Source: a candidate division WOR-1 bacterium RIFOXYB2_FULL_36_35
GTDB lineage: Bacteria; Margulisbacteria; WOR-1; XYC2-FULL-46-14; XYC2-FULL-37-10
Reading direction: 5' to 3'
Assembly: GCA_001771505.1 (NCBI GenBank)
Contig: MEUA01000005.1
Span: 10,808 to 74,807, forward strand
DNA: 64,000 bases
Position numbers and translations under genes: made by a program. Below are positions 8,919 through 44,488 of this stretch, piece by piece (the stretch's first letter is position 1; each line of letters opens with the position of its first letter). The notes beneath the pieces are model-generated. The model was not told where the DNA came from and made no database searches. It saw only the letters and a program-made list of their open reading frames with translations.

Positions 8919-8945
8919 ATTAATCCCCTTTATAATATTTGCTAA

Positions 8946-12182: not shown

Positions 12183-12191
12183 ATGTTTTAT

Positions 12192-13570: not shown

Positions 13571-15051
13571 TCAATAATTCCTTTAACAGATAAACGTCCA
13601 TAATAATTCTTCATGAAGGTATTCATGGCTATTAATTTCAAAGGATTTTTAATTAATTTCAGTAAAAATCCTTTGAATAGTAAAAAGAACAGTTTAACCC
13701 ATAGAAACACTTTAAACATTCGTTTAAACTTATTTGACTCTAATTTTATTAAAGTATTAAAATTTAATGAATAGAAAAATAAAGATAACTTAGATAAATT
13801 TGGATGTTTTATTACAATATTTTCATAATAATTCGTATTTGGCTCCGCAATAATTAGTTTTTTGTCTTGATACCATTCAAATATTGGCGTTTTTTTAAAC
13901 GGCATAAAAATTGTACAAGCAGCAGAATCAACCTTTGCTTTGATATTTAAATCAATTCCTTCCCAAATAGTTTTTTCTGTATCCCCTGGCAAGCCAATCA
14001 TATTAAATGAATTAGTTCGAATATTATATTTTTTTAATATATGAAAAGCTTTTATAATTTGATCGTTTTTCATTTTACGATTCAGATATTTTTCTCTTAT
14101 ATACTCATTGCCAGATTCAATCCCTAAAGTAATGCTTTCACAACCAGAATTTGTTAATTCTTTAGCAATATCATCATTTATCGCTTCAACTCTTGTTTGA
14201 CATTCGAATGGAAGATTTACCTTGCTCTTATATAATTCTAAAAGTTTAAAAAGATTGTTTTTATTCATTGTAAAGGTTTCATCTGAAAAAATCACTTTTT
14301 TCAATTCAAACTTTGCCTTTACCTCTATAATCTCATCAATAACATTTCCCGGGCTTCTGAACCGCAGATATCCTTTATTTTGATTAAGCATAGCAGCATT
14401 ACAATAAAAACAATTATAAGGGCACCCTCTTCCAGTTATAAAATTAGCAGAATCCAAGACACCTTCTCTATAATAATATTTTAAAGGTTCTCTATCAGGA
14501 AAAGGATATTCATCTAAAGATAAAAAGACTTGTTCTTTCTTACTATTAATAATTTTGCCTTTTAACTTATAAGTTATATTTAGAGAATTTTCTTGAGTTA
14601 ATTTATTATTTAATATTAATTCAAGATACTGAGGCAACGAAAATTCTCCTTCACCAAGACAGACAGCATCAACATAATCCAACTTAATTATATTCTCCCC
14701 TTCTATCATAGAATGAATTCCGCCAAAGATTATGTGAGTTGTATTAAAGTTGGTTTTAATGTATTCTGCCCATGACTTAGATAAATTATAATTCGTACTT
14801 AATACCGAAAAGGTTACTACTTCTGGCCGAATTTGCTTCATAATATAATCTAGTTGATGCTGTATAAAATCATATTTTATCGGAAAGTGCATTATCAAAG
14901 ACAAATCAGGGAAAAAAACAACGCTATCAAATCCAGCTTTTTTGAGGGCTGATGAAATATACAAAGGCCCCAAACTAACCTCTCCACTACCTATTGATAT
15001 AGGAACAATGTTTAGTATTCTAGGCTTATTTGTTTTTTTGTAACTTTCCAT
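13567..15051 (-). CDS. B12-binding-domain radical SAM enzyme (class B radical SAM, probable methyltransferase/modifying enzyme)
   Basis: CxxxCxxC present as GRGCPYNCFYCNAAM. The N-terminal region matches the cobalamin-binding domain layout of this family. Confidence 0.65.
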   Translation of the reverse strand: MESYKKTNKPRILNIVPISIGSGEVSLGPLYISSALKKAGFDSVVFFPDLSLIMHFPIKYDFIQHQLDYIMKQIRPEVVTFSVLSTNYNLSKSWAEYIKTNFNTTHIIFGGIHSMIEGENIIKLDYVDAVCLGEGEFSLPQYLELILNNKLTQENSLNITYKLKGKIINSKKEQVFLSLDEYPFPDREPLKYYYREGVLDSANFITGRGCPYNCFYCNAAMLNQNKGYLRFRSPGNVIDEIIEVKAKFELKKVIFSDETFTMNKNNLFKLLELYKSKVNLPFECQTRVEAINDDIAKELTNSGCESITLGIESGNEYIREKYLNRKMKNDQIIKAFHILKKYNIRTNSFNMIGLPGDTEKTIWEGIDLNIKAKVDSAACTIFMPFKKTPIFEWYQDKKLIIAEPNTNYYENIVIKHPNLSKLSLFFYSLNFNTLIKLESNKFKRMFKVFLWVKLFFLLFKGFLLKLIKNPLKLIAMNTFMKNYYGRLSVKGIIE

Positions 15052-16180: not shown

Positions 16181-17280
16181 TAATAAAAATCCTTACCACT
16201 AACATTTTCCATGATTTCTTTAAACTTTGGAATAAAAATTTGAGAATATTTTTCCATTCCATCTGGAGACAAATGAGTTTCATCTATAAAAAATTCTCGA
16301 TCAAACTGAAAGTTTTTTTCGATGTCTATAATTGGAACATGACATTTATCTGCAGTTCTTCGAATATTTACATTTTCAATCAAAACACCTTTTTTAAGTT
16401 TTTTATATGTTGGTTTATTTTTTATTTCATCATAAACATAATATAAATAGGTAGTTAGTATGGGTAAAATGTTGTGTTCTTTGCATATTCCAATCATGGA
16501 TCTAATATTTTGATTTTCAACTGTAAGATTAAAATTATTAGAAAATAAGGGATAAGACTTTCTAATTAATCTGTTCAAGTCATAATTTATATTTCCAGTT
16601 CCCATATACTTATCTAACAAGTATTCATACAAATGCCAAAATTTAATTTTGGGTAATATATCTCTTGTTATCCTAATCAATTTAGATTCAGATAAATTTC
16701 GAAATAAATGGCTATAATCACTTTTAAACTCTGGCGCTAACGCAGGAATAAGATCATTAAGACCAAATCCAAATACAATAGCTTTAGGCTTAAGCTTAAC
16801 AAGAGTTGTGTAAAGATAAAATATAATATCCATGCTCGTCCATCCACCCCTTGCAACAGGTATAAAAGTATAATTGTCGCCAATCTTTTTATTTAAATAA
16901 TAAGGCAAAGAATAAAAAACTTCTTTATAATAATATCCTGTGCCAAAAGTGCAGTTACCTAAAAAAATAATTAAATTGTTTTTACTAACTAATTTCTCAT
17001 CAAACAATAAACCATATGAATTTGTTTTCATCGATGGATATATTAATTTATCATGAGTAATTGGTGATTCAACCTTTTCTTCTGGAATTGTACAATTTGT
17101 TTTATATGCGACTGGCAAGTATGGATGAGAAATAAAATGACTTTTATTAAATTCAATCTTATCAACCGGCTCATAAAATCTTCGATTTTTTAGTTTAAAA
17201 ACTATCCTAAAAACAATTTCACCTAAAACAATTAATAGTAAAATTATTGAAACCATTATATACAACACAATGTAAACCAA
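16180..17280 (-). CDS. membrane-anchored SGNH/GDSL-like hydrolase or O-acyltransferase-associated protein
   Basis: N-terminal TM helix. SGNH-like blocks FLGNCTFG (Cys where the Ser nucleophile sits), GFGLNDL (GxND) and DETHLSPDG (DxxH). Confidence 0.4.
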   Translation of the reverse strand: MVYIVLYIMVSIILLLIVLGEIVFRIVFKLKNRRFYEPVDKIEFNKSHFISHPYLPVAYKTNCTIPEEKVESPITHDKLIYPSMKTNSYGLLFDEKLVSKNNLIIFLGNCTFGTGYYYKEVFYSLPYYLNKKIGDNYTFIPVARGGWTSMDIIFYLYTTLVKLKPKAIVFGFGLNDLIPALAPEFKSDYSHLFRNLSESKLIRITRDILPKIKFWHLYEYLLDKYMGTGNINYDLNRLIRKSYPLFSNNFNLTVENQNIRSMIGICKEHNILPILTTYLYYVYDEIKNKPTYKKLKKGVLIENVNIRRTADKCHVPIIDIEKNFQFDREFFIDETHLSPDGMEKYSQIFIPKFKEIMENVSGKDFY

Positions 17281-17282
17281 TT

Positions 17283-18176
17283 TTATCTCCTTAACAATAA
17301 ATGTTCGCTTTTGTTTTTTAATTGTCTCAATATCAAGAGGATTAATTTTATTGGATTAAGCAATAATAAACTCCATGACTCCTTAATAACTTCTATTAGT
17401 CTACCATTTTTATAATATCCAAGCATAGTTGCTAAATGTATATTGTAAAAAGCTTCTTTTTTTAAGGTGGCAGGTAATAAGGGATTTCTTGCATATGCTT
17501 TTGCAATGACCGCTAAACTATCTTTTTTGTAATCTTCAGTGTGTGCCACTAAATAGTCTCTAACAATTCGATACTTTGATAATGTTTCGGCTATATGTTT
17601 TATTTGATAATGTTCTGAAATTCTAAGCCACATATCCCAATCAGCAGCACAAAACATTTTTTCATCAAAAAACCCAACAGAAGAAAAACACTCTTTTTTA
17701 ACAATAACAGTAGGGTTATTAATAAAATTCGATAATAACAATCTTTTAGAAACATATCCTGAGAAACCTGAACATTTATTTTCTGAAATTATTTCTCCTG
17801 CGAAATCTATTAAAAATATGTTTGTATAAACCAATCCAACATCCTCATCCATAAAACCTTTTAAACTTTCTTCCAATTTATTTGACAACCATAAATCATC
17901 ACAATCCAAAAAAGCAATGTATTTGCCCTTCGCTACTTTAATTCCTAAATTTCTTGCACTTGATACTCCACCATTTTCTTTATAAATGTAATAAATTTTA
18001 TCGCCAAAATTTCTCATGGCATCTCTTGTTCCATCAGTTGAGCCATCATCAACAACAATTATTTCAAAATCACAAAATGTCTGGGCTAAAACACTTTCTA
18101 CCGCCTGAGCTGTATAAGTTGCATAATTGTATGCAGGGATGACAACACTTACTTCAGACATTTCCTCTCCAATCAT
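17283..18176 (-). CDS. family 2 glycosyltransferase
   Basis: VSVVIPAYNYATYTAQAVESVLAQTFCDFEIIVVDDGSTDGT. Confidence 0.7.
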   Translation of the reverse strand: MIGEEMSEVSVVIPAYNYATYTAQAVESVLAQTFCDFEIIVVDDGSTDGTRDAMRNFGDKIYYIYKENGGVSSARNLGIKVAKGKYIAFLDCDDLWLSNKLEESLKGFMDEDVGLVYTNIFLIDFAGEIISENKCSGFSGYVSKRLLLSNFINNPTVIVKKECFSSVGFFDEKMFCAADWDMWLRISEHYQIKHIAETLSKYRIVRDYLVAHTEDYKKDSLAVIAKAYARNPLLPATLKKEAFYNIHLATMLGYYKNGRLIEVIKESWSLLLLNPIKLILLILRQLKNKSEHLLLRR

Positions 18177-19032
18177 TTATATACTCTTTTAAAGCTTCTT
18201 CCCAGTCTCTCATTATATTCATTTCCATAAGCTCCAATTTATAGTTTCTAATTCCTTCAGATTCAGCACGAGGAGCAGGCAATGGAAATTCTTCTGAAGA
18301 AACAGGTATTACTTTAATATTCTTTCCTATTATTTCTACAATTTTACAGGCAATATCATATCGACTGCAACAACCATTATTTCCAAGATGATATAATCCA
18401 TAACTACCTGTTTTAATAATTTTTTTAATACCTTCAACCAAATCTTTTGCGAAAGTTGGAGTACCATATTTATCATTTACCGCTTTAATTTCTTTTCTAC
18501 CTTCCAGGCAAAACTGGATAATTTTCCCAACAAATTTTTTATCCTTTTCTCTTCCGCCACCAATCATCCATCCAGCACGAAAAATATAATATCTGTTCAA
18601 TAAATTTTGAACAATTTTTTCCCCTTCATACTTCGATTTAGCATAAAAGCTTAGAGGCTCAGGAGAAGAAAATTCTGTCTGTATTTCCATTTTTTTGCCA
18701 TTAAAAACGCCACCTGTACTTACATAAACCATTTCACAATCAAATTTCTGACAGGCTAAAGCAATATTTTGAGTACCTAAAGTATTAGTTCGATAAGCAT
18801 GATCAATTTCTGTCTCACATTTATCAACATCTGTTTCTGCCGCAAGATGAAGAACAATATCCGGCTTATTCTTTTTAAAAAGACCAAAAACGTTATCTTT
18901 ATCTTTAATATCCATTTCAGGCAAATCAGTTAAAACCAAGGCTTCATCACTGAAAACTGCTCCAACATAACTTCCTACCATTCCATTTGCGCCGGTTACT
19001 AAAATCATGTATTCCCTCCAATAAATTATCAA
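18154..19032 (-). CDS. RmlD-like NAD(P)H-dependent 4-keto-6-deoxy-sugar reductase (dTDP-4-dehydrorhamnose reductase family)
   Basis: MILVTGANGMVGSYV ... LHLAAETDVDKCE. Length 292 aa, matching the RmlD substrate-binding fold. Confidence 0.6.
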   Translation of the reverse strand: MIIYWREYMILVTGANGMVGSYVGAVFSDEALVLTDLPEMDIKDKDNVFGLFKKNKPDIVLHLAAETDVDKCETEIDHAYRTNTLGTQNIALACQKFDCEMVYVSTGGVFNGKKMEIQTEFSSPEPLSFYAKSKYEGEKIVQNLLNRYYIFRAGWMIGGGREKDKKFVGKIIQFCLEGRKEIKAVNDKYGTPTFAKDLVEGIKKIIKTGSYGLYHLGNNGCCSRYDIACKIVEIIGKNIKVIPVSSEEFPLPAPRAESEGIRNYKLELMEMNIMRDWEEALKEYINDWRGNV

Positions 19033-20865
19033 TTAAGTATAAAAAGGCAATAAAGTTTGTTCTGTTAATGGCGAAAAAAAACTCTCCATCAACTGTCGTC
19101 CCCGAATTTTTATTTGATCAAGCTGCTTGTTAGTAAGCGTCAAAATCTTTTTTATTTCTCTTCCAATGTCTTCTGACGTTCGAGCTACAAACTGAGTTTC
19201 ATCCATTGAGATCCAATCCATAGGATCAAGAGTTAAATCAATATCGCTTCGCACTCTAATTACAGGCAATCCATAAGCGATAGCATCTAAAATTGTAGCT
19301 GAGGCTGTTGCAATCAACAACTTAGATTGTGCCATAAGATCATTAATATTTCCTTCTGTAATCTCAAATTTAAAAAAAGAATCAAACGTAACATTTAAAA
19401 TATCTTGCAATTCTTTCCTAGGCATCATTGGATGAGGCTTTATCAAGACTTTTAAATCCGAAATACTTTTTAATATTTTATAAGATTTTGATAATAATTC
19501 AAGAGCTGTAGATCGTAATAATGGAAGAGTTATCAAAATATAGAATTTCTCAATAGAATTACTAATATTTGCCTTTAATAAATATTGATAGCGCAAAGCT
19601 GGCCCCTCTGCCAAAACATTTGAAGGATATCCTTCTTTCAAAAGAATCTCTTTGAAAAACTTTCCTGAACAAATTACTTTATCCGGCAATGGTAGAACTT
19701 TCAGTTCATTAAATGAGGTATAGCAAGACAATAAAAGAGGAGGAATAGATGTATGTTGAAATCCAAGTAGCTTTGTTTTGGAATAATATTTTAATTTACC
19801 CATTATCAAGGGCTTCTCAGATATCATATTCTCAAAAGGTATAATGATTTTTTTTATTATAATTCCATTTTTTCTTAATTTCTCAACAAGAAAATAGTGC
19901 ATTATAAGACTTGACAAAGACCCTTCAAAAAAATCTCTTTTAAATGCTTGACGAAATATTAGCTTGAGGTTCCAGTCGTTGAATACAAAATCTTTTTTAA
20001 ACAAATGCCTTGATTTTAATATAATAAAAATAGTTTTTAAATAATCCGCTAAAGAATAAAAATCTTCAGGGATAATAAATTGAGCCTTTGCTTTTCTAAA
20101 CCACAAGATTGCTTCTTTATATGAACGTTTTATATTGTAAATTATTGGAATAATAGCAACAGTTTCTCCTTTTCTTTTTAAGTTTTCATGGAGGTCAACA
20201 AAATAAGAATCTTTAAATAGGCCCTCATCTCCCAAATTTCTTTCTCCTACCCAAGTTCTCAAAATTGTCAATGGTATATTTTTATTAATATGTTTTACAC
20301 CATAAATACGTGAATATATAACATATATTTTCTCTATAAAACTTCTTTTTGCAAAGCGGATTAAACTTATACAAGATTTCAAATAAAAACTCATCAATGC
20401 TTCTTTTTTATAGAATTTTGACACAGTATATTCTTTAAATAACTCAGATTCATAAATTGTCTCCAACAATTCAGGACTTTCAGAGAAAATACAAATGTTT
20501 TTATTTCTAATTTCATTTCCTTTTAATTGCTTAATAATATCCAAATAACAAACATACAGAAAAACGGGACTATCCATAACATTTTTTTCTGCTATTTTAG
20601 ATACCCACCAGTAAAAAGAAGAAAATCGACAGCTCAAATTGCCAATGAAATCAATATATTGTCTACGAAGTTTATATGATGTTGCGTATAAAAAGTCCCC
20701 TATGTCAATATAATGAAAATTTGAAGGCAAAGTTTTTTTTAGCTTTAATAATTTCTCATAGTCTCTACCCAAAAAAAAACAGTAAAAATCTCTATCCATA
20801 TCTTCTTTAGGAAAAGAAGCCTCCTCAGAAATTAATATTAACTTTTTTTTCTTTGAATTAGACAT
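19033..20865 (-). CDS. large (610 aa) GT-B-like transferase of uncertain specificity (capsule/teichoic-acid-type or CMP-sugar-dependent transferase)
   Basis: The C-terminal half, KVLIKPHPMM...LLIATASATILDAIAYGLPVIRV, matches the donor-binding half of GT-B enzymes. It lies directly upstream of a cytidylyltransferase. It is a paralog of the N-terminal region of the 32615-35122 ORF. Confidence 0.35.
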   Translation of the reverse strand: MSNSKKKKLILISEEASFPKEDMDRDFYCFFLGRDYEKLLKLKKTLPSNFHYIDIGDFLYATSYKLRRQYIDFIGNLSCRFSSFYWWVSKIAEKNVMDSPVFLYVCYLDIIKQLKGNEIRNKNICIFSESPELLETIYESELFKEYTVSKFYKKEALMSFYLKSCISLIRFAKRSFIEKIYVIYSRIYGVKHINKNIPLTILRTWVGERNLGDEGLFKDSYFVDLHENLKRKGETVAIIPIIYNIKRSYKEAILWFRKAKAQFIIPEDFYSLADYLKTIFIILKSRHLFKKDFVFNDWNLKLIFRQAFKRDFFEGSLSSLIMHYFLVEKLRKNGIIIKKIIIPFENMISEKPLIMGKLKYYSKTKLLGFQHTSIPPLLLSCYTSFNELKVLPLPDKVICSGKFFKEILLKEGYPSNVLAEGPALRYQYLLKANISNSIEKFYILITLPLLRSTALELLSKSYKILKSISDLKVLIKPHPMMPRKELQDILNVTFDSFFKFEITEGNINDLMAQSKLLIATASATILDAIAYGLPVIRVRSDIDLTLDPMDWISMDETQFVARTSEDIGREIKKILTLTNKQLDQIKIRGRQLMESFFSPLTEQTLLPFYT

Positions 20866-21595
20866 ACAGATTTTTTATTTTGTCTTTTTTCATAACATCT
20901 CTTACAATTGCCAGGTCTTCTGGTGTATCAACACTGATTTTTGCATCTTTAATTACAACTGCCCTTATTTTAATCCCGTGTTCCAAAATTCTTAAGTATT
21001 CATTATACTCTATAACTTCAAGAGGAGTTGGATCCCAAGAAGAATACTGCAACAAAAATTCTTTCCTAAATGGAACAATAAAACACATTTTCAACATTTC
21101 TCTTACATTTGTCCTGGCATTGCTTGGCAAATCTGCCCTAGAACAGTATAAAATATTTCCTTCCAAATCCAGTACTGCCTTTATATCAGAAGAACTTTCT
21201 TTTTTTGCATAAGATGTAACTCCTACTGAAATGTTAAGAGAAGAGTCTTCTATTAGTGGAGTAATAACCAAATCGATATGATCAGGGCTAACCAAAGGCT
21301 CATCACCCTGAACGTTAACAACAATATCACATTCTATTTGTTGACAAGCCTCGGCAAGACGATCAGATCCTGTTTTATGATGTTTTCCTGTCATGATAAC
21401 TTTAACACCATATTTCTCTCCTGCAACCTTTATCTCGTCACTATCTGTCACCAAATAAACTTCAGAAAGAAGTTTTGACCTTTGAGCTCGTTTGCAAGTA
21501 TGTATCACCATGGGAATTCCTTCTATGTCTATTAAAGCCTTCCTTGGCAACCTGCTTGATTCAAGCCTTGCCGGAACCATACCTACAATTTTCAT
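20858..21595 (-). CDS. KdsB/NeuA-family CMP-ulosonate cytidylyltransferase
   Basis: MKIVGMVPARLESSRLPRKAL, the signature N-terminal motif of the CMP-Kdo / CMP-NeuAc synthetase family. Confidence 0.75.
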   Translation of the reverse strand: MKIVGMVPARLESSRLPRKALIDIEGIPMVIHTCKRAQRSKLLSEVYLVTDSDEIKVAGEKYGVKVIMTGKHHKTGSDRLAEACQQIECDIVVNVQGDEPLVSPDHIDLVITPLIEDSSLNISVGVTSYAKKESSSDIKAVLDLEGNILYCSRADLPSNARTNVREMLKMCFIVPFRKEFLLQYSSWDPTPLEVIEYNEYLRILEHGIKIRAVVIKDAKISVDTPEDLAIVRDVMKKDKIKNLYV

Positions 21596-21602
21596 TTATC
21601 TC

Positions 21603-22373
21603 TTACACTCCCTTAAAATCTTGAATTATTTTTTTAAAAATCCTAAAAAGCTCGGTTACTTCCAAAGAATAAGTTATAAACTGTATTCCAATTTCCTTAA
21701 ACCATTTAAGCTGTTCTTGATTGTCAGTAAAAGCTCCAACAGAAATTCCTTTCTCTCTCACCTTAGCAACAGCTCTTAAAACGGCATCTTTTACTTTTGG
21801 GTGAGTTATTTGTCCTGGCAAACCAATTGATTGGGAAATATCACAAAGCCCTAAGTAAATAACATCAATATCTTTATCCTCAATAATAGAATCAAGGTTT
21901 TCTAGTCCATTTTTACCTTCTACAATAAAAATACTCATAGTCTCTTCATTGGCTTTTTTAGTATGAAGAGTAAGATCAGAGGGTGAATAACCTGCAGAAC
22001 GAGTGAAAGGAGAAAAGCCACGATTTCCTATGGGAAAATATTTAATAGACTGTAATGCCTTTTCTTTATCTGCCCTGTTTTCAATATGTGGAACCACAAC
22101 TCCATACGCCCCAATGTCTAAAGCTCGCAGTATATCTGATTCATCGTTTTTTGGGACACGAATAAAAGGTGTACAGCCCTCAACTTCAGATGCTCGAATC
22201 ATACCCTCTGCAGTTTCAAAACTAATAGGCCCATGTTCCATATCTATTATTACAAAATCCAAGCCCGAAGCTCCCAAAACATTAACAGAAGATTCTGAAG
22301 GTAAAATACACCAAGTACCTAAAAGAATTTCTCCTTTTTTTAATTTTTCCTTAATAATATTCTTTCTTATCAT
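21603..22373 (-). CDS. HpcH/HpaI-family class II (pyruvate-specific) aldolase
   Basis: A TIM-barrel pattern, EHGPISFETAEGMIRA ... PFIRVP ... VEGKNGLENLD, typical of 2-keto-3-deoxy-acid aldolases. Confidence 0.7.
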   Translation of the reverse strand: MIRKNIIKEKLKKGEILLGTWCILPSESSVNVLGASGLDFVIIDMEHGPISFETAEGMIRASEVEGCTPFIRVPKNDESDILRALDIGAYGVVVPHIENRADKEKALQSIKYFPIGNRGFSPFTRSAGYSPSDLTLHTKKANEETMSIFIVEGKNGLENLDSIIEDKDIDVIYLGLCDISQSIGLPGQITHPKVKDAVLRAVAKVREKGISVGAFTDNQEQLKWFKEIGIQFITYSLEVTELFRIFKKIIQDFKGV

Positions 22374-22388
22374 ATATTTATTTTCTCC

Positions 22389-23144
22389 TTAAAAAACTTC
22401 TATTTTAGAAACATCATCAATTAAGAATTTAGTTAAAGCGCCTAACTGTTCTTTTGGAGTTATCCCAGAAGAAACAGCAATAGATGCTTTTACTTTTGCA
22501 TTATCACCCATTTTTATATCTGTTATGGCATCCCCGATCATCACACTTTCTTCTTTTTTAATATTCAATTTCTTTGTAATATAATCAATCATGTCTGAAG
22601 CAGGCTTAGGATTGTCAACTGCATCACAACCAATAATACAGGCAAATTTATCAGTTAATTTTAAGTAATCCATAGACAACTCAGCCCTTGATGTTTTATC
22701 TGTAGTTGCAATGGCTAGTTTGCAAGATTTTGAATGTAAAGAATCAATTAAACTCAACATTCCATTTATTGGTTTTATCAAACCATCCAACTTGTTTTCT
22801 GTTTGAACATCAATATCTTTAAAACAATCCAAACAAACTTCATAAGCTTTTTTATACCCTTTTGCCTCTAAATAATCAACAGCCGCCTGCATAACTATTT
22901 CTCTCTTTTTGATCCCAACGGGTCCTTCTGGACGAAGACAATTATTTTCTTGGTCAACCCCCATCTCAAAAACAATCCGGTTTGTATCATCTTTTGATAA
23001 AAAAAACTTTTCTGATATAAGATAAGCCCGCATCTTTATCATTTGAGACCAATAATGATACAAATCAATTAATGTACCATCCCTGTCAAAAATGACTAAA
23101 TTAATATTATTAATAATTTCGTTATTAACTTTTAAATTAACCAC
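22389..23144 (-). CDS. HAD-superfamily hydrolase (phosphatase)
   Basis: Motif I VIFDRDGTLID (DxD), plus later K and DD motifs. Confidence 0.65.
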   Translation of the reverse strand: MVNLKVNNEIINNINLVIFDRDGTLIDLYHYWSQMIKMRAYLISEKFFLSKDDTNRIVFEMGVDQENNCLRPEGPVGIKKREIVMQAAVDYLEAKGYKKAYEVCLDCFKDIDVQTENKLDGLIKPINGMLSLIDSLHSKSCKLAIATTDKTSRAELSMDYLKLTDKFACIIGCDAVDNPKPASDMIDYITKKLNIKKEESVMIGDAITDIKMGDNAKVKASIAVSSGITPKEQLGALTKFLIDDVSKIEVF

Positions 23145-24141
23145 TAATTGCCTCCAAATTTTGATCGACTAATTTTTTTGCAATCACAAGCCCTTTTTTT
23201 AAAATCCTCAAATCACTGTCAAAATCTTTATGATTTATAAATTCAGCAACCAGTTTACGGGCATAAGTCCCAATGGAAACCCCATTAACTTTAACCCCAC
23301 AAAGATGACAAAGTTCACCTGTTCTACTATTAGTACCACCTGAAGCCAAAATAATAACCGGCAATTTACTTTTTCTTACAATATCAGAAATTGCAACTGC
23401 CTGAAGAGTAGTATTGTAATCATCGCTTCCCCCACTCATTGGAACGCCATCTGCTTGAATAATCATTCTATCAGGAGCAAAAGCCAAAGCATCCTTTATT
23501 CTCTTCAAAAGATGTATATCAGACAATTGTGAACGATCTAAACACATACTAATATAATTATTTTTTAAATACTTATTCACCAATTTCCAATCCTGCATGA
23601 CAGAATCATCATCGGAAATAATTGCATGCAATTCAAATGTTTCCACTCCATTTACTAAACAAGCAGGGAGTATTTTATCTAATTCTCTCCTTTTATCAAA
23701 AAACTGAACTGCGCTTGAAGGGCAAATTTTTGAACATTCACCACAACCGATACAACGTTTTTCTATTATTTGATGCTCATTACTAATTGCATTTTGAACA
23801 CACACAGACAAACAAGCCCCGCAATGGAGACACTTGGCCTGGGCAACATTCGCTTTCCTAATATGAGGATCACCACGCATACCAATGCTAACATTAATAA
23901 ATGGTCTTGTTCTAAGCTCTATTCCAAGTTTTGGCGCAATCTCGTAGGCTTGATTAACTCCAAGGACAGAACTTTTTACTACATCAAGATTTGCTGAAAT
24001 ATCAATACCAAGTGCGCCAGCTAAAGTATAAAGAAGAGACAACTTTCGAACCTCTTCTGCATCTTCATTTCCAGCTCCACACACAATTTTAAAGTATTGA
24101 CTCTTCTCAAAAATCGATTTTAACTCTTCAAATCTATTCAT
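23137..24141 (-). CDS. 4Fe-4S dicluster (ferredoxin-type) domain protein with an additional uncharacterised domain
   Basis: Two CxxCxxCxxxCP motifs, CLHCGACLSVC and CIGCGECSKICP. The flanking ~250 aa are unrecognised. Confidence 0.6.
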   Translation of the reverse strand: MNRFEELKSIFEKSQYFKIVCGAGNEDAEEVRKLSLLYTLAGALGIDISANLDVVKSSVLGVNQAYEIAPKLGIELRTRPFINVSIGMRGDPHIRKANVAQAKCLHCGACLSVCVQNAISNEHQIIEKRCIGCGECSKICPSSAVQFFDKRRELDKILPACLVNGVETFELHAIISDDDSVMQDWKLVNKYLKNNYISMCLDRSQLSDIHLLKRIKDALAFAPDRMIIQADGVPMSGGSDDYNTTLQAVAISDIVRKSKLPVIILASGGTNSRTGELCHLCGVKVNGVSIGTYARKLVAEFINHKDFDSDLRILKKGLVIAKKLVDQNLEAISG

Positions 24142-25853
24142 AAGTAATTATTTATCCCTTTGTAAAACTTCCTATAATTTGTAGGAGTAATAATGTGAAT
24201 CCCTTCCCCTCCCTTACCACACAGATATTCCTCAATTTCCTCCAAATGCTTTAAATTTCCAAAATGTTTATCCAAAATCACATCTCTATCCCCAGTTTCA
24301 TCATTTTCTTTATAAAAATGAACATCCCCATCAGCAGTAGCGCGCATATAACCATCAAGTCCTGCGACAAAAATACGTTTTGCTCCAAAAACCCATGATA
24401 AAGCAATTAAGAAGATAGAAACAGTTCTGCAATTTGAACTAATTAATCCATCTTTGATATCAAAGGCAACATCATCTAGATCATTATAATAAATAAGTTC
24501 ATACTCGCGTCTTACATAATCATCAATCATCTCCTTTGGAATATGTTGACCAATTAAAAGCTTAGATTTGAGAGAAACAGTATCCACATAGTCAACAAAC
24601 CGACGCTTATTGGTAAATAAGTGATAATCAGGAACAAAAAGCCCTCCTAAGTAATTAGCCCCTAAAACTATTGGTTTGTACTTTTCAATAAAAAGAGAAA
24701 TTAAGTCTTTATACTTTTTTAAACTTGGTCCATTTGCCAAAACCAAAAAATCTGACCCATTATGTCTATTAACATAAGAAATTTTGTCACTGTTTTCGTT
24801 TATCCCTTTTTGTTCATTTTCAGCAGGTTTTAAAGCCTTTTTCTTGCCAAATAGTCCATCACGAATAATTTGATCAACAATGTCTTTTTTAAAGCCTATT
24901 GGTTTCTTGGCTTTTATGACTTCAAAAATATTCCAGATATCTTCAATGTCATACTCTTTTCGCTCAACCAAATTTTTAGCATAGTTTGGATGACATTCAT
25001 TAATACCTGAAAGCATATAGGGTAAATTATATCCCCAAAAGTTTTTTTCTTTTAGTTCAACAAAAAATCGATCAATCAAATTTAATACTGGGATTACGTT
25101 ATACTTGCCTGGCATCATTTGATGAAAATAGGAAAGTAAAATTTCTGTTGGTAAATTACCAGCACCACGCCCCATACCAAAAACAGAAGAATCAACAATA
25201 TCTACTCCAGCATCAATTGCAGCAAAAGTATTAGCAAAAGACATTAGTAAATTATTATGTGGATGAAATCCTAATTTAAAGTTTCTATCCTTTAACAAAG
25301 GGGTAAACAACTCTTTTATTTCATGAGGAAACATGGACCCATAGCTATCAGCTATATATACGTAATCTATCCCCTCTTGATTAATTAAAAAAACTAATTC
25401 ATTTAACTCGTCAGTAGAATAACTAATGTATCCCATCAAATTTACAGACACTAAAAAGCCAAGTCTTTTTATTTGTCCCGCAATATTAACTGCTTCCTTT
25501 GCTTTATCTTTATGAAAGGCCAACCTAATTAATGAAACATTGGTACCAAGATATTGGTTTAAATCATTTAAATCAAACTTACCATAATCAACCATTAAAG
25601 CAATTTTTGCCCCATTTATTCCTCCTGTAACACTTTTTATATCTTCAAAAGAAGTAAAACGAAATCTCCCAAACTTTTTAGGATCAAAAAAATGTTCTAC
25701 TCCATGATAGCCCAATTCTATATAATCAATACCAGCTTTTGAGAGTGCTCGATAGGTTTCACGTACTAATTTGAGATCAAAATCCCAATTGTTAACATAT
25801 CCCCCATCACGAATGGTACAATCAAGAATTTCTATTTTATTCTTATCCTTCAC
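24138..25853 (-). CDS. fusion protein: N-terminal HMGL-like (DRE-TIM metallolyase / pyruvate carboxyltransferase) aldolase domain + C-terminal CstII/Maf (DUF115)-like sialyltransferase-like domain
   Basis: N-terminal ILDCTIRDGGY ... FHPHNN (DRE-TIM family). C-terminal VLANGPSLKKY ... VAGLDGY resembles the GNGPSL and SGIDFY regions of GT42 sialyltransferases and Maf proteins. Confidence 0.45.
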   Translation of the reverse strand: MKDKNKIEILDCTIRDGGYVNNWDFDLKLVRETYRALSKAGIDYIELGYHGVEHFFDPKKFGRFRFTSFEDIKSVTGGINGAKIALMVDYGKFDLNDLNQYLGTNVSLIRLAFHKDKAKEAVNIAGQIKRLGFLVSVNLMGYISYSTDELNELVFLINQEGIDYVYIADSYGSMFPHEIKELFTPLLKDRNFKLGFHPHNNLLMSFANTFAAIDAGVDIVDSSVFGMGRGAGNLPTEILLSYFHQMMPGKYNVIPVLNLIDRFFVELKEKNFWGYNLPYMLSGINECHPNYAKNLVERKEYDIEDIWNIFEVIKAKKPIGFKKDIVDQIIRDGLFGKKKALKPAENEQKGINENSDKISYVNRHNGSDFLVLANGPSLKKYKDLISLFIEKYKPIVLGANYLGGLFVPDYHLFTNKRRFVDYVDTVSLKSKLLIGQHIPKEMIDDYVRREYELIYYNDLDDVAFDIKDGLISSNCRTVSIFLIALSWVFGAKRIFVAGLDGYMRATADGDVHFYKENDETGDRDVILDKHFGNLKHLEEIEEYLCGKGGEGIHIITPTNYRKFYKGINNYL

Positions 25854-27681
25854 AGGCTACCTCTTTTCGAACAAACTGGTTCGACAAACTACTTCTTTCT
25901 TTATTATATATTGCCCAATAAAACCCTTTCATTGAAAGAAGCTCTTCATGTTTTCCCTCCTCAACAACCTCTCCCTTTTCAAGCACAATAATTTTGTCAG
26001 AATCAATCACTGTAGAAAGCCGATGAGCTATAACAATAACAGTTCTATTTCTAGAAATATTATTTATTGCTTTTTGAACTATTGCTTCTGAAATGTTGTC
26101 TAAAGAACTTGTAGCTTCATCTAAAATAAGTATTTCAGGTTTATGAACCAAAGCTCTAGCAATTGCAATACGCTGCCTCTGCCCTCCAGATAATTTCATT
26201 CCCCTATCTCCAACAACAGTTTCATATCCGTCAGCAAGAGATGCTACAAAGTCATGAACATTCGCATCTTTTGCAGCTTGAATAATCTCATTCATATCAA
26301 CATTTAGACCAAAAGCAATATTCTCTGCAAGTGACGCATTAAATATAAAGGTATCTTGAGTAACAAATCCTATTTTTGAAAGCCAGGAACTTATTTTACA
26401 ATCTTTAATATCTATGCCATCAATTAAAATTCTGCCATAATTAACATCAAAAAGCCTTATAATTAAATCTGCAATCGTAGACTTGCCCGCGCCAGAATGA
26501 CCAACAATAGCAGTCATTTTCCCCTTTTCAAAAGAAAGCTTCAATCCCTTCAACACTCCTTTACGCCCAGGATAAGAAAAACTTACATCCTCAAATTTTA
26601 TCTCTTTCTTAAATTCTTTTATCTCCTCGGGCCCATCCTTAATTTGCTTAATATTCTTATTTAAAAGTGAGTAAAGAATTTCTACAATAGGCAAAGTTCC
26701 CATAATTTGAATTCTCAAATTCCCAAGTTGTGAAAGAGAAGGCATTATTTTTTGAAAAGCATACGCAAATGTCCCAAGTATTGGCAAAATAACTGCAAAA
26801 TCAGCAGAATATAAAACTTTGGCTAAAATCAGCAATAACGATAAAAGCACGATAGTCATCGTATCCAATAAATACCCTGGTATAAGTGAGAACTCCCTAT
26901 CTTTTTTTGCCAATTTAAAATAGTCCTGCATAGCTGCAAAAAAGTTCTTTATCCAACGATTTTCAGAAGAAAACACTTTTATTTGTCTTATCCCGCTTAT
27001 TGTTTCACCAAGTAAAACATTTTGTTTCTCACAAGCCACCACTCGCCCCTTCCCCATGTTGTAAGAAATATTACTTGCTATATACTTAGTTAAATAATAA
27101 TATAAAACACCGACCAAAATTATCGCGCCTGATGCATAAGGTGAAATCCCGATCAAAATAAACCCAACTGCCAATAATTTAGCAAACTCTGAAAGAGCTT
27201 GAGGTAAATAAGTAAGAATACTGCCAAGGGACGATGGCGCAGAATAAACCCGATATATAATTTCTCCTTGTTTATGATCAAGGAAATACTGATAATCTGC
27301 AGAAATACATTTTACAAATACTTTTTCTTGAATGTCCTGCCAAACTTTAAAGCCAGCAACAGAACTAACAATGCTCTGTAAATATCCAAACCCATTCTTA
27401 AAAATTACTGAAAAAATAAGCAATAGACAAGAGCTAATAAGTTTGTCTTTTATAGGAAAAAAATTTAAAATAAAAGTTATTATCTTGGCAATTCCTCCTG
27501 CATCAGCATTAATTCCAACCGCAGAATTTAATATTGAGAATAATATCAATACATTGATACCATCAAAAAAAGAACTCGCAAAAGTTAATATAGTAATTCC
27601 AAAAATATAATGCGGATACGGCTTTAAAAAATACCAACATATTTTCAAGCGAGGATTATTTATAAAATTTAAGAATTTCAT
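25843..27681 (-). CDS. ABC exporter, fused TMD-NBD (MsbA/PglK-like lipid-linked glycan or lipid flippase type)
   Basis: Six predicted N-terminal TM helices. Walker A GHSGAGKST, signature LSGGQRQRIAIARAL, Walker B ILILDEATSSLD. Confidence 0.85.
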   Translation of the reverse strand: MKFLNFINNPRLKICWYFLKPYPHYIFGITILTFASSFFDGINVLILFSILNSAVGINADAGGIAKIITFILNFFPIKDKLISSCLLLIFSVIFKNGFGYLQSIVSSVAGFKVWQDIQEKVFVKCISADYQYFLDHKQGEIIYRVYSAPSSLGSILTYLPQALSEFAKLLAVGFILIGISPYASGAIILVGVLYYYLTKYIASNISYNMGKGRVVACEKQNVLLGETISGIRQIKVFSSENRWIKNFFAAMQDYFKLAKKDREFSLIPGYLLDTMTIVLLSLLLILAKVLYSADFAVILPILGTFAYAFQKIMPSLSQLGNLRIQIMGTLPIVEILYSLLNKNIKQIKDGPEEIKEFKKEIKFEDVSFSYPGRKGVLKGLKLSFEKGKMTAIVGHSGAGKSTIADLIIRLFDVNYGRILIDGIDIKDCKISSWLSKIGFVTQDTFIFNASLAENIAFGLNVDMNEIIQAAKDANVHDFVASLADGYETVVGDRGMKLSGGQRQRIAIARALVHKPEILILDEATSSLDNISEAIVQKAINNISRNRTVIVIAHRLSTVIDSDKIIVLEKGEVVEEGKHEELLSMKGFYWAIYNKERSSLSNQFVRKEVACEG

Positions 27682-31858: not shown

Positions 31859-32618
31859 AAATATTCTTCAAATTTCTGATATCTCCTACAAAATCATTTA
31901 AATTCTTCATTGATGATTTCAATGTTTCTATTGTTAGCATAGATCCATTTTGTATAAAAGACAAAGTAAATTTCATATCGAAGCTCCCCTCTCCGATATG
32001 CAAATGTTTATCATAAATTCCTTGAATATCTCCATCTGTTAAATGGTACATTGTAGGTTTTAAAGAAATAAAATTTTTAATGTAGTGGGAGCTATCAATA
32101 TTATGCGCATTTGCAGAACAGATAGCATGGCCAATATCCAAACAAAATCCAATTTGAACCTCTTTGATTAAAAACTCGATTTCTTCAGGTGTGGTTCCAT
32201 TGCAGATTAATCCATTATCTAAAGCATAATAAGGCTTATTCTCTATTAATATCCTAGAATCATTAATATATTTCAATTGACTAGCCGTTTCTTTAATATT
32301 TCCATCAATTCCAGGATGGAATATTATCCAATGAGCATTTAATTTATCTGCAAAATGCTGAGCTTCATGAGCTAATTCCATGTTTTTATAAAACTTATTT
32401 TTTTCAGCTAAATTAAGCCCATCTCTAAAATGAGGAGCATGAATAATAAATGGTATATTTAATTCCTGCCAAACTTTTATATAATTTTCATAAGAATCAG
32501 GAATTACATAAAGTTCAATGTAATCATATGTGCTATTCTTATAAAGCTTTATTGCTTCTTCTATATAATTATTATTCGTCGACCATAGTTTCAAACCAAA
32601 CTTAAATTTCTTCATCAT
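31851..32618 (-). CDS. xylose-isomerase-like TIM-barrel protein (sugar phosphate isomerase/epimerase family)
   Basis: IELYV ... IIHAPH ... IIFHPG ... LIENKP ... CLDIGH, a metal-binding pattern of the AP-endonuclease-2/xylose-isomerase TIM barrel. Confidence 0.45.
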   Translation of the reverse strand: MMKKFKFGLKLWSTNNNYIEEAIKLYKNSTYDYIELYVIPDSYENYIKVWQELNIPFIIHAPHFRDGLNLAEKNKFYKNMELAHEAQHFADKLNAHWIIFHPGIDGNIKETASQLKYINDSRILIENKPYYALDNGLICNGTTPEEIEFLIKEVQIGFCLDIGHAICSANAHNIDSSHYIKNFISLKPTMYHLTDGDIQGIYDKHLHIGEGSFDMKFTLSFIQNGSMLTIETLKSSMKNLNDFVGDIRNLKNIYE

Positions 32619-35122
32619 ATTGCTAGTCCCTTCTGAACTATATGTGAATTTAACATGGTAAGATGATCATGTTGTTTTAAAAACCTCAACACATCATTTA
32701 GTGTAAAATAATTATTTACTGGATAAATCCCATCATATATTTCCCTAATCAACTCAAAATCCTCTTGTGTATCTAACGTAAGCCTATATTTTGAATCGTC
32801 TCCATTTCCTATAAATTGTTTTATCTTGAATTTTTCTTCATTCTGATAAATATATGGAGTAACATGCTCTCGCTGGCAGTTCTCTTTGGCAAAATTAAAA
32901 GCTTTTTTAAGAGAAGAAAAATTCATGATTTCAACATCAAGGCCTCTTGGAAAAGTACGCTTTATGGTATTAGATAAATAATCTACGGATGGATCCTTTA
33001 AAAAGGTTGCTACCATGCTATCAATTATATCCGCATCTACAAAAGGACAATCTGAAGTAATCCGAATTATCACATCAAGATTGTTTTCTTTTGCTGCATA
33101 ATAGTATCTCGAAAGAACGTCTTCCTCGCTTCCTCTAAAATATTTCAGATTATTTGATTTAGCCAGAGAAACGATAAGATCATCTCTTGCATCAATAGTA
33201 GTTGCAATGATTATTTCATGGACATTTTTACAGCCTTTTAATCTGTCAATAATATGTTCAAGAACAGGTTTATTTTGAACAGGAAGCATAATTTTACCCG
33301 GCAATCTAGTAGATCCCATTCTTGCCTGAATTATTATTCCAACTTTTCTCTGATTTATATAACCATTAATTAAAAATTCTTGCAATAACTCTATGGAACG
33401 ATCATCAGGACATTCATCGTATTCTCTTAATAAGTAATAAGGAATATCTTTTAAAGGAGATACTTCACCCAAAATAATCTTATGAGTCATTTCAATTAAC
33501 TTATCGGGATCATCAAACACTAGTTTATCTTTAAAGATTTTAGAAAAAGGATGATTATAGTGTACTTGATCAAAATAAAGTCCTTCGACACCAGAAATAA
33601 TGGCAATTGTGGAAGAACTGGTCATACCCTGTGTAACAACAATATCTGAAATGCCTATTACCTTTACATAAGACCAGTCCTTTGGATTTAAGATATAAAC
33701 ATTATTGAGATTATTTAGCTGTGCTATTATTTTATCAAGTTTCTCTCTACAACCATCAGAAAAGCTATGGGTTTGAATTGGAACCTTAGGTTTTAACAAA
33801 ATTGTAAGATCATTATTCAATAAAGCCATTTTTAATGCTATTTCATAAAAAATGACAAAATGATCTTCTGTCATTTTGCATTCTATCCCAAATGACTCAT
33901 CAAAAAAACTAACTACTTTTCTTGATACGTCAATCCCTGCATCTGCAAGTATTTTATGCCTAAAAGCCCTTGATTCTTTAATATATCTTTTATTGAAAAA
34001 TCCTATAGGCAACAACATCTCCTCAGGGCCTTCAACGCCCTTTACATGCGCTTTTCCCCATAAAAAATATTTATCACATCCTAAGAAAGAAAGAACTGAT
34101 TTATTCAAATCAACAGATAAATCAGACCAGTGAAACAAATAATACTTAGATCCGTAATTCTGGCAAACAATAGACTCTGCAATATGACTAAAACTATAAA
34201 AAGAATATCCGAGTTCAGAAGTAATTTTATAATTAGAAAATATTTTTTCATATTGTAAAGCAGAAGCTTTGAAATGATAAAAAACACTGTAAAACAACGT
34301 ATAGTAGTTAGAATTTATTAAATTAATTAAAATTCTAACGCCAGAAAACACATATTTGGGCAAAACCCTAAAAATAAATTGTTTTAACCCCATTGGCAAC
34401 GAATTAAACACAAAATGTTCATAATCAGAGTTTATAGCATCATTATATCCGACCAACCTACATCCCTCCAAATAAATACCTCTTGAATAAAGCAATAAAT
34501 CTTCTTTTTTTATATTTTTATCATCTACAAAAAAATCATCTCCACAACAATGATCTATTCCTGTGTGCAAACCACTAACAGCTTCAGTCATAACCTTAAA
34601 TTTTTTAACTTTCAAAAAAAGTTTTATTCCGCGAAACAAACTAACACAAAATACAGAATAAACAATTATTAACAAATTAAGAAGTTTTATTACTGTTGAT
34701 GGTTGATTTTTCCATTTAATTGGCGGTATCGTTTTAAATTTAATTAAGTATTTCTCTGCTGCAAAACGATTTAGAGGATTATCTTCTAAGACTATAACAT
34801 TATTAATATTATTTTTATATGACATTTCATCTAAACACCTAAGAGCAATAGATAAATATTCAACTATCCATTTTTTCAGCAATGGATTAAAACGGTCAGT
34901 ATCAAATAATTTATTCATTGATTTTGTAAAATATGAATCTAATAAGGCATTTTTTTCAACAAACTCATTTGTCAATTCTACTAGATCTGAATAAATCCAA
35001 TTTAAATATTCAATTCTTCGTTTCCCATTAAAACTTCCCAACAAATTTACTTCTGCAAGCAAATCAATTTGAATGGCTTTCCTTATATTTCTAATTTTTC
35101 CTCTTATAGTTTCAAGCATCAA
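32615..35122 (-). CDS. bifunctional fusion: N-terminal ~600-aa GT-B-like domain + C-terminal CMP-nonulosonate cytidylyltransferase (PseF/NeuA-like)
   Basis: C-terminal VGIIIQARMGSTRLPGKIMLPV (cytidylyltransferase). Upstream of it, LLKPKVP...ISDIVVTQGMTSSSTIAIISGVEGLYFDQ (the GT-B donor half). Immediately downstream of the PseB/PseC homologs. Confidence 0.55.
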   Translation of the reverse strand: MMLETIRGKIRNIRKAIQIDLLAEVNLLGSFNGKRRIEYLNWIYSDLVELTNEFVEKNALLDSYFTKSMNKLFDTDRFNPLLKKWIVEYLSIALRCLDEMSYKNNINNVIVLEDNPLNRFAAEKYLIKFKTIPPIKWKNQPSTVIKLLNLLIIVYSVFCVSLFRGIKLFLKVKKFKVMTEAVSGLHTGIDHCCGDDFFVDDKNIKKEDLLLYSRGIYLEGCRLVGYNDAINSDYEHFVFNSLPMGLKQFIFRVLPKYVFSGVRILINLINSNYYTLFYSVFYHFKASALQYEKIFSNYKITSELGYSFYSFSHIAESIVCQNYGSKYYLFHWSDLSVDLNKSVLSFLGCDKYFLWGKAHVKGVEGPEEMLLPIGFFNKRYIKESRAFRHKILADAGIDVSRKVVSFFDESFGIECKMTEDHFVIFYEIALKMALLNNDLTILLKPKVPIQTHSFSDGCREKLDKIIAQLNNLNNVYILNPKDWSYVKVIGISDIVVTQGMTSSSTIAIISGVEGLYFDQVHYNHPFSKIFKDKLVFDDPDKLIEMTHKIILGEVSPLKDIPYYLLREYDECPDDRSIELLQEFLINGYINQRKVGIIIQARMGSTRLPGKIMLPVQNKPVLEHIIDRLKGCKNVHEIIIATTIDARDDLIVSLAKSNNLKYFRGSEEDVLSRYYYAAKENNLDVIIRITSDCPFVDADIIDSMVATFLKDPSVDYLSNTIKRTFPRGLDVEIMNFSSLKKAFNFAKENCQREHVTPYIYQNEEKFKIKQFIGNGDDSKYRLTLDTQEDFELIREIYDGIYPVNNYFTLNDVLRFLKQHDHLTMLNSHIVQKGLAI

Positions 35123-39824: not shown

Positions 39825-39839
39825 ATTAAATACTAAACA

Positions 39840-43878: not shown

Positions 43879-43879
43879 T

Positions 43880-44485: not shown

Positions 44486-44488
44486 AGG

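Follow-up and report, generated by a model that had tools for sequence, protein, structure and literature searches.

The stretch of DNA analysed here (the window) is a 64,000-nucleotide part of contig MEUA01000005.1 from the candidate division WOR-1 bacterium RIFOXYB2_FULL_36_35, and it carries a gene for a 571-residue protein in which a DRE-TIM metallolyase-type aldolase barrel is joined to a sialyltransferase-like domain. The record of this WOR-1 (Margulisbacteria) metagenome-assembled genome (MAG) labels the fusion protein hypothetical. The gene leads a conserved, uncharacterised cassette of six genes that is found in many bacteria and in at least one archaeon, and what is chiefly new here is this conserved context. 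The order is the fusion, an LdpA-like protein, a HAD phosphatase, an HpcH/HpaI aldolase, a KdsB-type cytidylyltransferase and a protein of ~610 residues. The fusion, its parts, the rest of the cassette and the exporter gene upstream are as follows.

24138..25853, minus strand: fusion gene, 571 residues
24852..25853, minus strand: fusion residues 1–334, DRE-TIM (HMGL-like) class II pyruvate-aldolase barrel with a conserved helical extension
24789..24851, minus strand: fusion residues 335–355, interdomain linker, rich in Lys, Glu and Asn and of varying length
24141..24788, minus strand: fusion residues 356–571, sialyltransferase-like domain of the MptE-like/Maf/GT42 superfamily
23137..24141, minus strand: gene 2, LdpA-like/DUF561-like protein, 334 residues, carrying two 4Fe-4S motifs (PF12617 LdpA_C, E = 6e-14, and Fer4 families)
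22389..23144, minus strand: gene 3, HAD-superfamily phosphatase, 251 residues (PF13419, E = 9.5e-27)
21603..22373, minus strand: gene 4, HpcH/HpaI-type class II pyruvate aldolase, 256 residues (PF03328, E = 8.6e-27)
20858..21595, minus strand: gene 5, KdsB-type cytidylyltransferase, resembling the synthetase of cytidine monophosphate (CMP)-activated 3-deoxy-D-manno-octulosonate (Kdo), 245 residues (PF02348, E = 1.2e-41)
19033..20865, minus strand: gene 6, soluble 610-residue protein with a C-terminal half like glycosyltransferases of the B fold (GT-B), no Pfam family
25843..27681, minus strand: ATP-binding cassette (ABC) exporter, MsbA/HepA/PglK-like, 612 residues (PF00005 and PF00664; NCBIfam HepA, MsbA and PglK-like models below their cut-offs)

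The open reading frame (ORF) of the fusion was confirmed at exactly these coordinates. An earlier note on this DNA had proposed a single polypeptide joining an aldolase to a sialyltransferase-like domain; it was right about the fusion and about both domains, and the four motifs that it quoted are all present, ILDCTIRDGGY at residues 9–19, FHPHNN at 196–201, VLANGPSLKKY at 371–381 and VAGLDGY at 496–502. The gene starts with GTG, with AGAGG 6 nt upstream. Its 5' end shares 11 nt with the end of the ABC exporter gene and its stop shares 4 nt with the start of the LdpA-like gene, and because of these overlaps the exporter, fusion and LdpA-like genes look translationally coupled. A misassembly as the source of the fusion is excluded, the architecture being kept across phyla. 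Full-length homologues with 50–62% identity and 99–100% coverage occur in many phyla, and a word-indexed database search with the fusion gave 1,913 matches. The best 120 of these are nearly all full-length (567–638 residues) and come from Margulisbacteria/Saganbacteria, anammox Planctomycetes, Syntrophorhabdaceae, Omnitrophota, Chloroflexota and one Euryarchaeota MAG; about half of them carry precomputed PF00682 and PF01973 labels, and their names are generic, such as 'aldolase catalytic domain-containing protein'. Data with one genome per species hold at least 594 relatives, of which the best 80 loci were surveyed. In these, close fusions occur in Omnitrophota, deltaproteobacteria, Clostridia, Bdellovibrionales and Solirubrobacterales, fusions of 28–36% identity in gut Clostridia, Bacteroidales and the cultured Proteocatella sphenisci, and stand-alone aldolases in Paenibacillus and Cohnella.

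The N-terminal half is a DRE-TIM domain, as the earlier note had recognised. The Pfam HMGL-like family PF00682 matches residues 6–240 (E = 2.5e-27; 96.3 bits, the gathering score being 29), and the domain retains the catalytic Arg15 along with Asp16, His197 and His199 as metal ligands. Together with Asn200, Arg229, Asn233, Trp273, Gly274 and His288 they are invariant in all 36 members of a set of fused proteins that reaches down to 28% identity; none has lost a metal-binding Asp or His residue. The barrel covers residues 6 to ~250 and the extension contains WGYNLPYMLSG (residues 273–283), His288 and Tyr291. In the alignment with DmpG, RDGGY lies over RDGSH and FHPHNN over the metal-binding MHAHHN. 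The fusion thus shares with DmpG and BphI the DRE-TIM barrel and the R-D and H-x-H metal/enolate site, but the catalytic His of these enzymes (His21 in DmpG) is Tyr19 in the fusion protein, the position being Tyr in 32, Phe in two and His in two of the 36 proteins. Because of this replacement the sequence places the N-terminal half in a distinct aldolase subfamily and not among the hydroxy-oxovalerate aldolases. The top NCBIfam matches are nevertheless 4-hydroxy-2-oxovalerate aldolase models, at about half their cut-offs (TIGR03217, 126.4 versus 286; NF006049, 137.7 versus 229). No match to the DmpG communication domain (DmpG_comm) was found for the fusion protein in Pfam, and no aldehyde dehydrogenase gene that could encode a DmpF-type partner was found among the annotated window neighbours. 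The best match to a solved structure is to PDB entry 3DXI (E = 3e-50), a structural-genomics 'putative aldolase' without an assigned function, followed by DmpG (PDB entry 1NVM; E = 5e-28). The family-specific motifs LDCT.RDGGY and WG.NLPYMLSG are common to 3DXI and the fusion, and 3DXI is 33–36% identical to fused and to stand-alone members alike, which does not mark it as part of a fused protein. It is probably the N-terminal domain of BVU_2661.

The stand-alone aldolases of Paenibacillus and Cohnella (~327 residues, 37–41% identical; for example 7974–9894 of locus L044, Paenibacillus naphthalenovorans) overlap a radical S-adenosylmethionine (radical-SAM), SPL-like gene and have no glycan genes around them. 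They were set aside as a different subfamily in a non-glycan, radical-SAM context, and look like a separate, likewise uncharacterised use of the aldolase subfamily.

For the C-terminal half, the earlier note had proposed a sialyltransferase/Maf-like domain, and the fold bears this out. A confident model of the domain matches Maf, Cst-I and GT29 sialyltransferase structures. The highest score is to Maf (PDB entry 5MU5; 15.4, with 185 residues aligned), followed by the MptE pyrophosphokinase (HPPK; PDB entry 8SD5; 13.5), SteA (11.9), the GT42 enzyme Cst-I (PDB entry 2P56; 11.8), four mammalian GT29 sialyltransferases (8.7–10.8) and thiamine pyrophosphokinases (6.3–8.4). The domain therefore has both the fold of the solved PF01973 members Maf 5MU5 and MptE 8SD5 and the GT-A-variant sialyltransferase fold of GT42 (CstII/Cst-I). 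At the family level, PF01973 (MptE-like, formerly DUF115/MAF_flag10) is matched at E ≤ 1 by all 22 close homologues (best E = 5e-9), and PF06002 (CST-I) by two of the 22 (E = 0.004). Judged from the model, the fold by itself cannot tell a transferase from a kinase. Like MptE of archaea, the C-terminal domain might act as an ATP-dependent kinase or pyrophosphokinase, phosphorylating the substrate or product of the aldolase, with the HAD enzyme removing the phosphate later and the 610-residue protein acting as the sole transferase; we regard this as unlikely on the evidence of the sequence profiles, the conserved residues and the gene neighbourhood.

The profiles place GT42 first. Aligned with hhalign, a profile of close C-terminal homologues (A2) matches CstII, in a sequence identical to chain A of PDB entry 1RO7, with E = 4.8e-4. 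Searched against PDB sequences the same profile gave no match at E ≤ 10, whereas two broader profiles reached GT42, MptE and SteA. That of the divergent fused members (A3) matched PDB entry 9C08 at 2e-4 and CstII at 0.004–0.011, and that of the window domain with 40 stand-alone relatives (A4) matched Cst-I at 6e-4 and CstII at ~1e-3 among the solved proteins. The GT42 CMP-sialic-acid transferases outrank all other solved proteins, and do so over the donor-site segment T/N-S-G...G-x-D-x-Y. Against the kinase alternative, MptE 8SD5 is reached at E = 0.045 and over profile positions 5–54 alone, the N-terminal GxGPS loop, compared with 2e-4 to 1e-3 for GT42 over the catalytic segment. Maf was absent from every sequence-profile search made with the C-terminal domain. 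Identity to CstII/Cst-I of Campylobacter jejuni (PDB entries 1RO7 and 2P2V/2P56) and to 9C08 is ~15%. Unlike these, the fusion domain is ~215 residues long, is joined to an aldolase and has no C-terminal membrane-association region, and its probable donor is the product of the KdsB-type enzyme and not CMP-N-acetylneuraminic acid. Maf proteins are described as ~630-residue proteins of three domains, an N-terminal Rossmann-like domain, the central MAF_flag10 domain and a C-terminal helical flagellin-binding domain, with the outer two implicated in the handling of flagellin. The fusion has a ~215-residue domain of the central type alone, after the aldolase, and its neighbours are of the polysaccharide and ABC-export kind; no flagellin was found in the annotated parts of the window. 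As at least one defining test fails for each of the DmpG, Maf, GT42 and MptE families, the fusion is not a member of any of them in the strict sense.

The conserved motifs of the C-terminal domain are ANGPS (residues 373–377), Asn400, YH (410–411), NKRR (415–418), NCRT (474–477), GLDGY (498–502), FY.E (513–516) and TPT (556–558). In the 36 fused proteins Gly375, Ser/Thr377, Asn400, Asn415, Lys/Arg417, Arg418, Gly498, Asp500, Gly501, Tyr/Phe502 and Thr556 are invariant or nearly so; His411, Arg476, Tyr514 and Glu516 are invariant in the close subfamily alone. All three profiles align N-C-R476-T477...G498-x-D500-G-Y502 with N-Q-R129-I-T131-S...G-I-D154-F-Y156 of CstII. Asp500, which thereby corresponds to CstII Asp154, is present in 36 of 36 and is the sole invariant acidic residue of the domain. 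Since no other acidic residue is invariant and available for Mg-ATP, this is mild evidence against an Mg-ATP pyrophosphokinase, the pattern fitting the metal-independent chemistry of GT42 better. Mutagenesis has shown acidic residues of Maf to be essential (Glu324 and Asp415 in Magnetospirillum magneticum; Asp272 and Asp357 in CbMaf). We estimate that Asp500 corresponds to one of these from residue spacing, which resembles that of CbMaf Asp357 from a conserved Ser/Thr, and not from an alignment; the first Maf acidic position appears to be Asn415 in the fusion and not Asp or Glu. Tyr502 aligns with CstII Tyr156, which like Tyr162 binds phosphate in that enzyme, and is Phe in 11 of the 36 proteins. 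In CstII, according to a review, His188 is the catalytic base, Arg129 helps to bind the sialylated acceptor and a lid becomes ordered upon CMP binding. The place of this lid is occupied in our model by a loop of low confidence (residues 505–519). His530 precedes a long C-terminal helix, as His188 does in CstII, and is the best positional candidate for its counterpart in a lid region where the alignments are unreliable; it is His in 30 of 32 close homologues and Asn in distant members.

The variation at His530 and the failure to identify a catalytic base bear on a second alternative, by analogy with known regulators: the domain might be a non-catalytic sensor of CMP or a CMP-ulosonate that feeds back on the fused aldolase, with transfer left to the 610-residue protein, which offers a separate glycosyltransferase candidate within the cassette. 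SteA, with the same fold, is described as a regulator and not an enzyme, and the DRE-TIM enzymes isopropylmalate synthase (LeuA) and citramalate synthase (CimA) carry C-terminal regulatory domains. We nonetheless think a sensor unlikely. The invariant G-x-D-G-[YF], Asn415 and Arg418, with the strong conservation of the domain (mean column identity 66% in close homologues), look like an active site; the flexible and variable linker, without a predicted interface, does not suggest allosteric coupling; and the domain is widespread as a stand-alone protein beside cytidylyltransferase or ABC exporter genes, where there is no aldolase to regulate. An exhaustive search for the C-terminal domain family gave 651 clusters at E ≤ 1e-3, and most of the top matches are stand-alone proteins of 205–265 residues, several of them on contigs too short to show their context. 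Where context is visible, a stand-alone gene adjoins a cytidylyltransferase (L088), adjoins an ABC exporter like that upstream in the window (L091) or is directly followed by a separate aldolase gene (L092), an arrangement in which the fusion is split and the order of its parts swapped.

The cassette itself is found complete in at least 12 of 86 loci by local tblastn. The order is the same in WOR-1, a Brocadiaceae genome and the Euryarchaeota MAG, and in a metagenome contig the HpcH gene alone has moved, to upstream. The most constant neighbour of the fusion is the cytidylyltransferase, which is 58–74% identical across phyla and adjoins the fusion in more than 12 loci; in the distant gut-type fusions (28–36% identical) a CTP_transf_3 gene is still directly adjacent, and in Proteocatella the fusion lies between a cytidylyltransferase and a PfkB kinase within a Wzy-type cluster. 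The window's cytidylyltransferase passes the curated cut-offs of three models (NF009905, 256.5 versus 255; NF003952, 231.6 versus 193; TIGR00466 kdsB, 160.1 versus 155.2), and it is a KdsB-type protein. The loci are polysaccharide clusters with glycosyltransferases (GTs), Wzy or ABC exporters, and a homologue of the window's ABC gene is also found upstream of the fusion in four others (L007, L008, L009 and L019) and upstream of the stand-alone domain gene in L091. This setting is a further argument against a kinase: MptE is an archaeal 6-hydroxymethyl-7,8-dihydropterin pyrophosphokinase, whereas the fusion sits beside a cytidylyltransferase, with glycan biosynthesis in every locus examined and no pterin-pathway context.

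The second gene is an obligatory member of the cassette, seen in the window, L001, L003 and L005, and adjoins the fusion in other phyla too. LdpA is a redox sensor of the cyanobacterial circadian clock; the cassette protein scores 160 bits with the NCBIfam LdpA model, below the cut-off of 450, has a short N-terminal match to DUF561 (residues 6–57) and matches solved structures through its ferredoxin insert alone. The nearest NCBIfam models of the HAD protein are PpaX and phosphoglycolate phosphatase, both below their cut-offs, and the HpcH/HpaI aldolase matches the HpaI and GarL models with E values of 1e-39 to 2e-44, below the equivalog cut-offs. The gene for the 610-residue protein is present in most close fusion loci. 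This protein has weak matches to TIGR04326 and TIGR04396, 'surface carbohydrate biosynthesis protein', and no solved or named relatives of it were found; its relatives narrowly miss the thresholds of several GT-B families, among them DUF6716 ('putative glycosyltransferase') and Capsule_synth. This protein and ten orthologues, 11 sequences in all, have only seven invariant residues in common, including the His-Pro (HP) pair His478–Pro479. An HP motif is typical of GT-B bacterial sialyltransferases and contributes to CMP-sialic-acid binding, according to a review, and the sequence makes this protein a candidate second CMP-sugar glycosyltransferase. In the Brocadiaceae and metagenome loci, paralogues of it (638–646 residues, no Pfam family; 7901–9817 of L001 and 1135–3075 of L003) are found just upstream of the fusion, beside a gene for a GT2/CTP_transf_3 fusion.

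Around the cassette, the window forms a single long glycan island on one strand, with PseB-like, PseC-like and PseI genes (the last at equivalog level, 492.7 versus 340), GNAT genes, a second NeuB pathway, GTs and the ABC exporter. The gene thus lies among those for nonulosonic acids, and the earlier note had suggested CMP-pseudaminic acid (CMP-Pse) and CMP-legionaminic acid (CMP-Leg), which Maf enzymes use, as donors to try. On this account the fusion would serve the window's own pseudaminic/legionaminic pathway, transferring CMP-Pse or CMP-Leg while the aldolase remodels a nonulosonate. Such a role is improbable, since in the Brocadiaceae, metagenome-contig, Euryarchaeota and deltaproteobacterial loci there are no PseB, PseC or PseI genes near the cassette and its own KdsB-type gene is always there. 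The cassette is a self-contained module, with or without pseudaminic-acid genes, and because it occurs without them in other genomes the product of its own KdsB-type enzyme is a more likely donor than CMP-Pse or CMP-Leg. The Pse block has candidate transferases of its own, a LIC12162-family protein (525 bits) and a PFTS-motif/cytidylyltransferase fusion, and a retro-aldol reaction on a CMP-linked nonulosonate would be chemically implausible, C2 being blocked.

The best reading of the fusion is a two-enzyme protein of a self-contained, horizontally mobile 'ulosonic-acid module', in which pyruvate aldolases supply a 3-deoxy-2-ulosonic acid for activation by the KdsB-like enzyme and transfer by the C-terminal domain. 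We hold this explanation tentatively, at a little under an even chance. The data show which domains and fold class are present, an intact aldolase site, the closeness of the sequence to GT42, and a conserved cassette with its KdsB-type member; the reactions, as well as the nature of the sugar and of its acceptor, we infer as follows. The N-terminal DRE-TIM domain would be a divalent-metal pyruvate aldolase which, with the HpcH/HpaI aldolase, condenses pyruvate and an aldehyde, which may be a phosphorylated sugar. The product would be a 4-hydroxy-2-oxo acid, i.e. a Kdo-type 3-deoxy-2-ulosonic acid, made without a NeuB/KdsA synthase dependent on phosphoenolpyruvate (PEP). The HAD enzyme would strip the phosphate, the LdpA-like Fe-S protein may carry out redox tailoring and the KdsB-type enzyme would make the CMP-activated sugar. 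The C-terminal GT42/Maf-like domain, probably with the 610-residue GT-B-like protein, would then transfer the sugar to a glycan acceptor, and the adjacent ABC transporter would export the glycan. This reading is supported by the intact HMGL-like site, the profiles with GT42 first, the invariant Asp500, the KdsB-type neighbour, the cassette order and the polysaccharide loci, and also by the split version in L092 and the acceptance of CMP-Kdo reported for Maf enzymes. For transfer from a CMP-activated ulosonic acid the support is the context, namely the adjacent KdsB-type cytidylyltransferase.

Several results weigh against this reading. The window protein itself scores 18.2–20.8 bits with PF01973, below the threshold of 34.6, so that the DUF115/MAF_flag10 match that the earlier note proposed to look for holds for the homologues and not for this protein, which does not match PF06002 either. 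No equivalent of the catalytic base His188 could be fixed in the alignments; the catalytic His that the note proposed to check for is not established, His530 not being invariant, and Arg476, on the position of CstII Arg129, is specific to the subfamily. With Tyr19 in place of the DmpG/BphI catalytic His, the chemistry of the aldolase may differ, and by its sequence matches the HAD protein appears to be of the small-phosphoacid type and not the KdsC type. In the full-length structure model (predicted TM-score 0.51) no confident domain interface is predicted; the predicted local distance difference test is below 50 at linker residues 335–355, a block that is also gappy and variable in the alignment (A1). 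Because the cassette holds a plausible HP-motif transferase, the fused domain need not be the sole transferase, or a transferase at all. No functional description of the fusion, its cassette or 3DXI was found in the literature, nor biochemical data for any member; the architecture, which the earlier note held to be undescribed, is abundant and often labelled with both families, and in function it does lack a description.

The cassette resembles the KdsA–KdsC–KdsB and NeuB–phosphatase–NeuA pathways in its succession of condensing enzyme, HAD phosphatase, CTP_transf_3 protein and transferase. It differs from them in having two pyruvate-type class II aldolases instead of a PEP-dependent KdsA/NeuB-type synthase, an obligatory LdpA-like Fe-S protein and a synthase fused to a transferase-like domain. 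Acidic ulosonic sugars, among them Kdo and the sialic, pseudaminic and legionaminic acids, shape the surfaces of bacteria as well as host or phage recognition, and to our knowledge all known routes to these sugars use PEP-dependent synthases. A PEP-independent, aldolase-based ulosonic-acid module would thus be new biochemistry, and would bring to this class a biosynthetic logic, and probably a sugar, not seen before. The widest form of the proposal is a previously undescribed PEP-independent route to a CMP-ulosonate, in which two class II aldolases replace KdsA/NeuB, the LdpA-like enzyme tailors the sugar and one polypeptide, synthase joined to minimal GT42/Maf-type transferase, acts both before and after the activation step, the whole having spread horizontally across at least 12 bacterial phyla and Archaea and decorating cell-surface glycans with a new acidic sugar; in this full form we consider it rather doubtful. 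If true, more than 1,000 'aldolase catalytic domain-containing' hypothetical proteins and the stand-alone relatives of ~230 residues would gain a function, an LdpA-type Fe-S protein would be placed in a carbohydrate pathway, and glycoengineering might make use of a CMP-sugar transferase scaffold of very small size. The domain is also a test case for switching between kinase and glycosyltransferase in the MptE/Maf/GT42 fold.

With the KdsB-like gene and that of an 835-residue fusion protein included, there are four CTP_transf_3 cytidylyltransferase genes in the window. Further genes of the island are the following.

11049–13570, minus strand: PP-loop ATPase (NAD_synthase/QueC-like), adjoining HisH-like and HisF-like genes
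32615–35122, minus strand: 835-residue protein, with TIGR04417 'PFTS motif polysaccharide biosynthesis protein' as the sole match, below cut-off, to its N-terminal ~590 residues and a C-terminal CTP_transf_3 domain
37297–39066, minus strand: 589-residue protein without a Pfam family, 'LIC12162 family transferase' (525.7 bits versus 225), directly adjoining the PseB-like gene
42089–42859, minus strand: CTP_transf_3 protein
42856–43878, minus strand: DUF354 epimerase-like protein
44489–45568, minus strand: second NeuB synthase, with SAF domain

The last three belong to a second nonulosonic-acid pathway beside the Pse block (39075–45568, minus strand), which also holds a GFO_IDH_MocA oxidoreductase, a DegT aminotransferase and two methyltransferases. 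The 835-residue protein may be another fusion of activation and transfer, within the Pse block. The PP-loop, HisH-like and HisF-like trio presumably resembles the set by which amino sugars and nonulosonates receive their acetamidino groups. ORFs nested in longer ones aside, all 35 ORFs of at least 120 residues between 8 and 45 kb run along the minus strand. The GC content of the window is ~30%, and its GC skew is strongly negative throughout (about -0.2 to -0.3); the cumulative skew does not turn anywhere in the window. Genes for B12-binding radical-SAM proteins recur near the cassette or the stand-alone genes (13567–15051 of the window; 17024–18574 and 20537 to the end of L001; 7625–9157 of L003; 140–1645 of L088), which hints at methylation or another radical tailoring of the same sugar.

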